1,349 nt of DNA from Naegleria gruberi (lineage: Eukaryota): assembly GCA_000004985.1 (NCBI GenBank), contig GG739443.1, one strand, 5' to 3'. Numbering within the stretch: the stretch's first letter is position 1; every line of letters begins with the position of its first letter. Shown here in pieces: positions 3-1,349 of the stretch. Made by a program: the position numbers and the translations under genes. The notes under the pieces are model-generated. The model had not been told where the DNA came from and ran no database searches. It saw only the letters and a list, made by a program, of their open reading frames with translations.

Positions 3-1349
3 ATTAATGATAAGAAATCTGATAGCAAGGAAGAAACAAAACCTGAAAAGATTGTTGAACACAAGAAAGAGAGTACATCTAGCAAGATTGAAAAGAAATC
101 TGAAGAATCAAAGCCAGACACCAAGGTGGAACAAGTCAAATCTGATGAAAAGAAACCTGATATCAAGTCAAAGACTGAAAAAAAGAAAGAAGAAAAGACA
201 TCTTCTCATAAGGATGATGTAAAGAATTCTGAAAAGAAGAAATCTGAAGCCAAGAAGGATGATAAGAAATCTGAAAAGAAATCAGAACATAAGGATGATG
301 AACTGGATGATAACAAAATTCAAATCAAATCAGAAAACCTCCAAAAGAAGGTGGATGAAAATAAGAAGAAATCGGATATGAAGGATGACAAGATGTTAAA
401 TGAAAATAAGGAGAAATCCAAGACCGATACCAAGAAATCCGCAGGAAAGAAGTTAGAGGAATCTAATGACAAGAAATCCAATGACAAGAAATCAGAAAAG
501 AAGGAAGACAAGGCAGGGCATAAGGATGATTCTATGAAGGACGAAAAGAAATCTGAAAAGAAAGCAGATGATAAAGAAGAAACGAATAAAAAGAGGGATG
601 ACGAGAAATCTGAACATAAGGAAGATAAGAAATCTGAAAATTCTGACAAGATGACCAATGAGAAAAACAAGGCGAACGATAAGAAATCTGATAAGGATGA
701 TGTAAAGAAGAAATCTTCAAAGAAATCAGAAGAAAATGAGAAGGAATCTATTGAGCATAAAAAGGATTCTGAAACTTCCAAACCAGATTCCAAAATGCAA
801 GTCAAATCATCAGAAAAATCAAATTTAAAGACGGATGAAAAGAAATCCGAACATAAGGATGATAAGAAATCTGATAAGAAGGCCAATCCGCTCGATAAAT
901 CCGAAGCCAACAAGGATGAAAAGAAGACACACGATGATGAAAATAAATCAGATAAGAAGGATTATAAGAAATCAGATCATAAGGATGAAAAGAAGACTGA
1001 TAAGAAACTTGATAAGGATAATAAGAAGACACATGATGATGAAAAGAAATCAGAGAAGGATGAGAAATCTGAAAAGAAATCATATGATGAGGATGAAAAG
1101 AAGGTTGATAAAAAATCTGATACCAAGAAGGATGATAAGAAATCTGATAAGAAATCCGAACATAAGGATGATAAGAAATCTGATAAGGAAAAGAAATCTG
1201 ATGACAAGAAAGATGAAAAGAAATCTGATAAGAAATCACATGATGAGGATGATAAGAAATCTGAAACCAAGAAGGATGATAAGAAATCTGAAAAGAAATC
1301 AGAACATAAGGATGATAAGAAGGCTGATAAGAAACCAGAACATATGGAT
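3..1349 (+). CDS. Partial CDS (5' and 3' ends outside the window, codon phase starting at nt 3) for a highly charged Lys/Asp/Glu/Ser-rich low-complexity repeat protein with periodic His/Tyr, likely intrinsically disordered. Specific family not recognised.
   Basis: Frame +3 was translated codon by codon across all 449 codons. It contains no TAA, TAG or TGA and is the only frame open across the whole window. Codons show strong purine-first periodicity (aag, gat, gaa, aaa) and a consistent synonymous preference (GAT about 68 of 77 Asp, GAA about 52 of 62 Glu, CAT 12 of 14 His). Every competing ORF in the track is a short alternative-frame or antisense product of low complexity. In-frame ATGs at 378, 411, 534, 651, 795 and 1344 are all internal because the frame is already open upstream of them. 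Approximate composition is K 153, D 77, E 62 and S 56 of 449 residues, with no W, C or F. Confidence 0.75.
   Translation, partial: MNDKKSDSKEETKPEKIVEHKKESTSSKIEKKSEESKPDTKVEQVKSDEKKPDIKSKTEKKKEEKTSSHKDDVKNSEKKKSEAKKDDKKSEKKSEHKDDELDDNKIQIKSENLQKKVDENKKKSDMKDDKMLNENKEKSKTDTKKSAGKKLEESNDKKSNDKKSEKKEDKAGHKDDSMKDEKKSEKKADDKEETNKKRDDEKSEHKEDKKSENSDKMTNEKNKANDKKSDKDDVKKKSSKKSEENEKESIEHKKDSETSKPDSKMQVKSSEKSNLKTDEKKSEHKDDKKSDKKANPLDKSEANKDEKKTHDDENKSDKKDYKKSDHKDEKKTDKKLDKDNKKTHDDEKKSEKDEKSEKKSYDEDEKKVDKKSDTKKDDKKSDKKSEHKDDKKSDKEKKSDDKKDEKKSDKKSHDEDDKKSETKKDDKKSEKKSEHKDDKKADKKPEHMD
177..198 (+). other. Longest uninterrupted polypurine tract in the window (22 nt, gaaaaaaagaaagaagaaaaga), sitting inside the CDS.
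   Basis: Direct reading shows every base from 177 to 198 is A or G, bounded by t at 176 and c at 199. It is one of many purine runs; the + strand as a whole is about three-quarters purine by codon-composition estimate. Confidence 0.5.
250..299 (+). repeat. Copy 1 of a 50-nt exact intragenic duplicate (ccaagaaggatgataagaaatctgaaaagaaatcagaacataaggatgat), encoding (A/T)KKDDKKSEKKSEHKDD.
   Basis: Position-by-position comparison shows it is identical to 1267-1316. The flanking bases differ: g/a at -1 and g/a at +1. Confidence 0.85.
1124..1173 (+). repeat. Copy 3 (diverged) of the 50-nt repeat, with 2 mismatches relative to 250-299.
   Basis: The sequence is ccaagaaggatgataagaaatctgaTaagaaatcCgaacataaggatgat. 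The mismatches are gaa to gat (Glu to Asp) and tca to tcc (synonymous Ser). It is in the same phase as the other two copies. Confidence 0.8.
1267..1316 (+). repeat. Copy 2 of the 50-nt exact intragenic duplicate.
   Basis: It is identical to 250-299 over 50 nt. It is in the same reading phase (both copies start at codon position 1 of frame 3), so the duplication preserves the frame. Confidence 0.85.

Follow-up and report, generated by a model that had tools for sequence, protein, structure and literature searches.

An uninterrupted forward reading frame across purine-rich repeat DNA that probably encodes part of a disordered, highly charged protein

Which strand and frame of the 1,349-nucleotide stretch of DNA analysed here (the window, numbered from its first letter) encodes a protein is not apparent from a listing of its open reading frames (ORFs). 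The original prediction placed the product in forward frame +3, uninterrupted for 449 codons from nucleotide (nt) 3 to nt 1349, and noted that the listing omits it. Translation indeed yields 449 residues with no stop; the frame is open at both window edges and is unlisted because it runs off both ends. At a minimum length of 60 amino acids (aa) the listing holds, as had been stated, one 71-aa ORF in frame +1 and antisense ORFs of 197, 62, 145 and 97 aa. The window is, quite probably, an internal fragment of a forward-strand gene or exon read in frame 3, covering at least 449 residues of a disordered, highly charged polyampholyte repeat region.

Stop codons number 8 in frame +1, 114 in +2, 0 in +3, 19 in -1, 4 in -2 and 9 in -3. 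Each 150-nt bin contains 7-18 stops in +2 and zero in +3, and a frame that stays stop-free while its neighbour has stops in every bin never slips in phase. The window consists of 51% A and 33% G+C, with a strong purine skew throughout. Across 2000 dinucleotide shuffles, the longest run of codons without a stop, taken over all frames, was 122 codons on average and 331 at most, so that none of the 2000 attained 449. Markov simulations of orders 2 to 6, which were trained on the window itself and therefore retain its local repeat context, likewise reached 449 codons in 0 of 1000 sequences at each order (maximum 290). Composition thus cannot account for the openness of frame +3.

The +3 product consists largely of lysine (153 residues, 34%), aspartate (77, 17%), glutamate (62, 14%) and serine (56, 12%), with 14 histidines, a single arginine and 2 glycines among the 449 residues; hydrophobic residues make up 6.7%. 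The coherent codon bias that had been attributed to this frame is evident in its skewed usage, with GAT (68) preferred to GAC (9), GAA (51) to GAG (11) and AAG (98, or 64% of the lysine codons) to AAA (55), and with TCT (28) the commonest serine codon ahead of TCA (16) and TCC (8). Purines fill codon position 1 in 81% of the codons, and A fills position 2 in 74%. A preference for AAG over AAA combined with GAA far above GAG, GAT far above GAC and TCT-led serine at 33% G+C is unlike the usage of low-GC bacteria. The CpG observed/expected ratio of 0.46 equals that of GpC (0.46), so CpG depletion is uninformative.

The product is built of degenerate units such as (D/E)KKS(D/E) and KKSEHKDD. The tripeptide KKS occurs 29 times and is followed by D or E in 24 of these cases. 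A His-centred unit recurs about 13 times with the consensus xxKKxEKKSEHKDDKKSDKK (KKSEHKDDKKSDKK), in which His is the most conserved position. The 14 His residues are spaced 12-77 residues apart in the context (S/T)(E/D)-H-K-(D/E)(D/E), with EHKDD found four times and HKDD six times; examples of their codons lie at nt 288-290, 852-854, 1161-1163 and 1305-1307. At the nucleotide level, Tandem Repeats Finder detects nested periods of 12, 15, 24, 27, 36, 63, 81, 102 and 108 nt, most of them within nt 912-1349, and a 12-nt unit reads GATAAGAAATCT. All periods are multiples of 3 except those of two short arrays with low scores (7 and 11 nt). The region of nt 1-900 is far less regular, yet equally open in +3. 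The principal repeat features are as follows.

nt 912-1349, forward strand: the most regular repeat array found by Tandem Repeats Finder, with a 36-nt consensus that encodes DKKSDKKSDHKD
nt 237-299, forward strand: copy 1 of a 63-nt segment encoding KSEAKKDDKKSEKKSEHKDD, 98.4% identical to nt 1254-1316 (megablast self-match)
nt 1254-1316, forward strand: copy 2 of the 63-nt segment, 1017 nt (339 codons) downstream of copy 1

Within the two 63-nt copies, nt 273-299 and nt 1290-1316 are 100% identical (direct-repeat family D4). A second near-identical pair, nt 836-878 and nt 1145-1187, lies 309 nt apart and agrees at 97.7% over 43 nt. Both pairs match at synonymous sites too, compared to an identity of 60-87% among the other copies. 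A recent duplication in frame, or gene conversion, is the suggested cause, while collapse or expansion of repeats during assembly could conceivably have produced the same pattern.

The manner in which the repeats have multiplied and diverged bears directly on whether frame +3 has been maintained. All of the top 60 self-similarity offsets and 25 of 25 offsets between self-matching high-scoring segment pairs are multiples of 3, and in 15 direct-repeat families the same is true of every start-to-start spacing. Many of these spacings (15, 21, 27, 39, 45, 51, 57, 63, 75 and 81) cannot be divided by the 12 nt of the unit, so it is on codons and not on the unit that the constraint acts. Gapped BLAST alignments of repeat copies also contain gaps of 1 and 2 nt, which are ambiguous in low-complexity sequence. 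The frame is moreover fragile, with 242 of its 449 codons one substitution away from a stop. When random divergence is simulated, a level of 5% creates 4 stops on average (probability of none 0.014) and 10% creates 7.7; the actual divergence between repeat copies is about 13-40%, and +3 is still stop-free. Variation in the serine codon of the KKS motif is confined to the third base (AAGAAATCN, where N is T in 15, A in 8, C in 4 and G in 1). The ratio of nonsynonymous to synonymous differences (pN/pS) between repeat copies, calculated from pairs that are not independent, is 0.59 in +3 compared to 1.48 in +1, 1.15 in +2, 0.58 in -2 and 3.38 in -3. Taken together, phase, spacing, fragility and wobble features point to a maintained reading frame, not to satellite DNA.

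A further regularity concerns the choice of lysine codon, which follows the next residue: a lysine before another lysine is encoded by AAG in 51 of 55 cases, before serine by AAA in 38 of 39, and before aspartate by AAG in 18 of 19. Runs of six A occur 3 times compared to 23.5 expected when the lysine codons are permuted, a number as low as this being found in none of 2000 permutations, and the longest A run in the window is 7. Poly(A) tracts stall ribosomes and cause frameshifts, and are avoided in most organisms outside Plasmodium (PMC7295572). The alternation of AAG and AAA fits such an avoidance in a translated sequence. Part of this codon context is, however, no more than inheritance of the AAGAAATC repeat core.

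A single-sequence AlphaFold2 model, which is weak evidence by nature, predicts the product to be largely disordered, with a mean predicted local distance difference test score (pLDDT) of 48.5 and values below 50 in 310 of the 449 residues. One helix is predicted.

nt 309-419, forward strand: residues 103-139 (DNKIQIKSENLQKKVDENKKKSDMKDDKMLNENKEKS), the sole predicted helix, with block pLDDT of 62-79 compared to about 45 elsewhere

These residues form the least repetitive stretch and hold most of the few hydrophobic residues of the product. I, L, V and M are placed there at roughly heptad-like spacing. This segment may act as a short amphipathic or coiled-coil interaction site.

Charged residues account for 65% of the product, which has a net charge per residue of +0.03. 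Their distribution is more even than chance in a simplified re-implementation of charge patterning analysis (windows of 5 and 6 residues, 2000 shuffles), with z-scores of -3.87 for positive-positive, -3.53 for negative-negative and -3.88 for positive-negative patterning. Lysines occur as 47 singles, 47 doublets (22.6 expected) and 4 triplets, so that the longest run is 3, whereas in shuffles it is 5.3 on average. Together, charge mixing and capped lysine runs suggest that blocks of charge or poly-Lys runs have been selected against, beyond a simply K-rich composition. A well-mixed polyampholyte chain of this kind should be expanded and highly solvated, and neither collapse nor self-coacervation is expected of it.

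While the evidence for a maintained frame is extensive, the assignment of the strand is complicated by the geometry of the two best frames. Frames -2 and +3 have the nucleotide of their third codon position in common, and -2 therefore inherits the wobble-concentrated variation and with it a pN/pS of 0.58; the ratio was accordingly dropped as a strand discriminator. Stop-count asymmetry under codon shuffling was dropped as proof of strand as well, since the frames predict each other. Permuting the codons of +3 gives 6.5 +/- 2.0 stops in -2 compared to the 4 observed (probability of 4 or fewer 0.16), and permuting the codons of -2 leaves a mean of 0.6 stops in +3 (probability of none 0.40). The call for the forward strand rests instead on the 0 stops in +3 against 4 in -2, on product composition and on codon-position composition. 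Frame -2 would encode a glycine-free product of 32% S, 23% F, 16% L and 10% D, and its first codon position would be 74% T, as derived from position 2 of +3. A value of 74% T at codon position 1 is very unlike real genes; a glycine-free low-complexity protein with 23% phenylalanine would be unusual, whereas disordered regions rich in K, D, E and S are common. Judged against coding sequences in general, +3 is thus the more gene-like frame, and the ATG ORFs listed for either strand are best read as by-products of a purine-rich coding strand.

nt 320-913, reverse strand: 197-aa ORF in frame -2, rich in S, F, L and D, best read as a mirror of the sense frame
nt 977-1270, reverse strand: 97-aa ORF in frame -2, best read as the same mirror artefact
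nt 802-1239, reverse strand: 145-aa ORF in frame -3, rich in S, Y, H, P, I and Q, a probable by-product in a frame with pN/pS of 3.38
nt 7-222, forward strand: 71-aa ATG ORF in frame +1, rich in R, N, L and K, a probable by-product of the unit being stop-poor in +1, with pN/pS of 1.48

The 197-aa and 145-aa antisense ORFs had been characterized as S/F/L-rich, a description that among the antisense ORFs suits only those of 197 and 97 aa in frame -2 and does not suit the 145-aa ORF of frame -3.

Searches for relatives gave no match to the +3 product. A Pfam scan returned 0 families at E<=1, a PDB search returned only uL23 at E=0.27, which is at chance level, and Rfam returned only two chance matches far below gathering thresholds. 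Run exhaustively against 1.84 billion proteins that represent a collection of about 15 billion, phmmer produced 0 matches, as did word-indexed protein searches with the +3 product and with a 7-sequence profile of the repeat unit; a word-indexed protein search with the 197-aa antisense ORF found no homologue. Exact-product look-ups of the +3 product and of three listed ORFs (197, 145 and 71 aa) found none on record. At the nucleotide level, no match was obtained by megablast against phages and plasmids, by distant blastn against phages or by tblastn against plasmids, and exact 29-49-mers were absent from IMG/VR contigs, 185,579 GTDB species genomes and JGI metagenome contigs. Peptide-pattern scans of the same three collections with tblastn confirmation located no related locus, nor did a degenerate KKSEHKDDKK pattern in IMG/VR viral contigs. 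In the literature, the peptide motifs matched only the repeat peptide of a Plasmodium berghei PHIST protein besides two incidental matches. In a control at the same database size, phmmer recovered copies with 60-70% of their residues replaced at E-values of 4e-5 to 1e-57, these copies being collinear and thus free of simulated indels and repeat-unit turnover, and it reported 0 of 20 composition-matched shuffles. DUST and SEG masking left the BLAST self-matches intact. The negative results are therefore not artefacts of masking or bias filters, and the +3 product is an orphan in every collection searched. Its absence from the prokaryotic and viral collections, together with its codon usage, gives a weak hint of a eukaryotic source.

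Other signals in the window were few. Neither tRNA genes nor inverted repeats were found in it. Matches resembling sigma-70 promoters number 8 compared to 2.9 +/- 1.7 in shuffles, with 6 of the 8 on the minus strand (nt 460-1045). The score is 9 of 12 in each case, and the matches reappear along with the repeat (TTGTCA/TTATCA ... TATCAT); repetition of the GATAAGAAATC unit most likely creates them incidentally. Terminator-like sites number 2 compared to 1.0 +/- 1.3 expected, and both kinds of signal were rejected as consensus matches in AT-rich repeat DNA.

Several considerations weigh against an internal coding fragment on the forward strand. Frames +3 and -2 predict each other's openness and have equal pN/pS, so that neither signal decides the strand. 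The repeat copies share ancestry, and both the pN/pS and the lysine-codon statistics consequently overstate the number of independent events. Support from outside the window is lacking in all collections searched, and any function proposed for the product is read from its composition. The sequence itself nonetheless lends good support to the claim that +3 is the true coding frame and the listed ORFs its by-products: phase is kept, spacings are multiples of 3, stop-prone codons have not turned into stops and variation lies at the wobble position. The stronger wording of a real gene goes further than a product that has no homologue and is not on record would warrant, and the openness of +3 does not by itself dispose of frame -2. 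Such a minus-strand gene, with its stops removed by introns or acquired recently as a pseudogene and with +3 as its mirror by-product, is nevertheless the least probable of the explanations considered. It would be in keeping with only 4 stops in 449 codons, a wobble site shared with +3 and a pN/pS of 0.58, and with shuffles of -2 codons that leave +3 open with a probability of 0.40. But +3 is free of interruptions and -2 has four, a number that falls within the prediction made from +3 (6.5 +/- 2.0). The 74% T at codon position 1 and the Phe-rich, Gly-free product would be odd for a gene, and for the 197-aa ORF neither a homologue nor a record was found.

It is also very unlikely that the window represents untranslated, satellite-like DNA, rich in purines, whose 12-nt unit is stop-free by chance in two of the three forward frames and yields the open frame as a by-product. 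The unit GATAAGAAATCT is visible, +1 too comes close to being open (8 stops) for no reason other than the repeat, no frame has a homologue, and the 51% A and the purine skew extend throughout. However, the first 900 nt are weakly repetitive yet equally open, the spacings are multiples of 3 and often not of 12, the copies are 13-40% diverged when 5% neutral divergence already adds about 4 stops, order-6 Markov sequences never exceed 290 open codons, and variation is concentrated at the third codon position. A different alternative accepts that +3 is translated now or was recently, and regards it as a young, runaway low-complexity expansion, in an ordinary protein or a de novo ORF, that is merely tolerated. 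The pN/pS of 0.59 signals modest constraint only, the near-identical copies (98.4% over 63 nt and 97.7% over 43 nt) attest to recent duplication or conversion, relatives are absent even for the repeat-unit profile, and the predicted structure is disordered. Even charge mixing (z about -3.9), lysine runs of at most 3 compared to 5.3, and the conserved His motif suggest, on the other hand, that more than openness has been kept, and the older, diverged copies are all still open; this alternative is therefore considered unlikely. Comparably doubtful is the more ambitious proposal that the product represents a lineage-restricted family of hyper-charged, well-mixed polyampholytes longer than 449 aa, with the His-centred SEHKDD as a pH- or metal-sensitive, phospho-tunable unit, from a source, probably eukaryotic, that the 15-billion-protein collection does not sample.

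If the window is indeed an internal part of a forward-strand gene or exon, its repeat segment would have grown by repeated in-frame duplication, along with some recent conversion, of (D/E)KKS(D/E) and His-centred units. Selection would hold the frame open and keep the lysine codons alternating between AAG and AAA, thereby avoiding long A runs. Judging from composition, the chain would form an expanded, solvated coil, most likely serving as a spacer or bristle or as a multivalent electrostatic docking surface. Phosphorylation at the 29 KKS sites could tune such a docking surface. Perhaps the repeated His residues confer sensitivity to pH or metals, although this is a guess.

Beyond this locus, start-to-stop ORF tracks hide genes that span a whole window, and purine-rich low-complexity coding DNA yields long and misleading antisense ORFs. 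Any antisense frame with the same wobble position as the true frame takes over the near-openness of the latter along with its low pN/pS, and neither property can therefore assign the strand of purine-rich low-complexity genes.

Comparison with known systems places the product among charged disordered regions of several kinds. Nucleolar proteins such as Nop56, Nop58, DKC1, LYAR, PolR1F/G and NUCKS share a grammar of K-blocks and E-rich regions, which requires positive-positive and positive-negative z-scores of at least 3, K blocks and E no less abundant than D (King et al. 2024, PMC11938373). These regions and the window product are alike K- and acid-rich, Ser-containing, fully disordered polyampholytes. 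The nucleolar grammar was nonetheless ruled out by z-scores of about -3.9, K runs of at most 3 and fewer E (62) than D (77); a Pfam scan of the product detected no Nop, dyskerin or other domain. Dehydrins and KS-type hydrophilins (PF00257) are likewise rich in K, H, D/E and S, hydrophilic and disordered. HK(D/E)-type motifs occur in some His-rich dehydrins, a likeness taken here as a lead only. Membership in the dehydrin or late embryogenesis abundant (LEA) group was rejected, as there is no profile match to PF00257 at E<=1, no K-segment, and only 2 Gly in 449 residues. An E/K-rich single alpha-helix (SAH) domain was also rejected, with only residues 103-139 helical and the remainder coil at pLDDT of about 45 in the single-sequence model. 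The traits that the product does share are those of well-mixed strong polyampholytes: 65% charged residues, a net charge near zero, even alternation of charges, 6.7% hydrophobic residues and predicted disorder. Well-mixed polyampholyte disordered regions occur as charged spacers or projection domains, and constitute a physical class rather than a homologous family, one that is silent on role.

Closest in style, without sequence homology, are the exported proteins of Plasmodium. GARP, KAHRP and Hyp12 carry lysine-rich tandem repeats, and repeat expansion and contraction has been proposed as a route to function in this system (Davies et al. 2016, PMC5207086). In the P. berghei PHIST protein PBANKA_114540 the repeat reads SEKKSEKKSEKKNEENSEKKSKKKSEKK / SEKKSEKKSEKK (PMC4811531), and its SEKKSEKK is nearly the same as KKSEKKSE in the window. 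As in the window, in-frame expansion of short K-rich units with D, E and S has produced long low-complexity regions that are disordered. The coding of lysine is opposite: it is AAA-rich with long poly(A) in Plasmodium (PMC7295572), and in the window AAG makes up 64%, AAG alternates with AAA and the longest A run is 7. The N-terminus, where an export signal or PEXEL would be placed, falls beyond the window. The product is an ordinary kind of charged, disordered repeat region, a K/D/E/S low-complexity repeat that would gain in interest only with the full gene, the organism and a conserved role for the His-centred motif.

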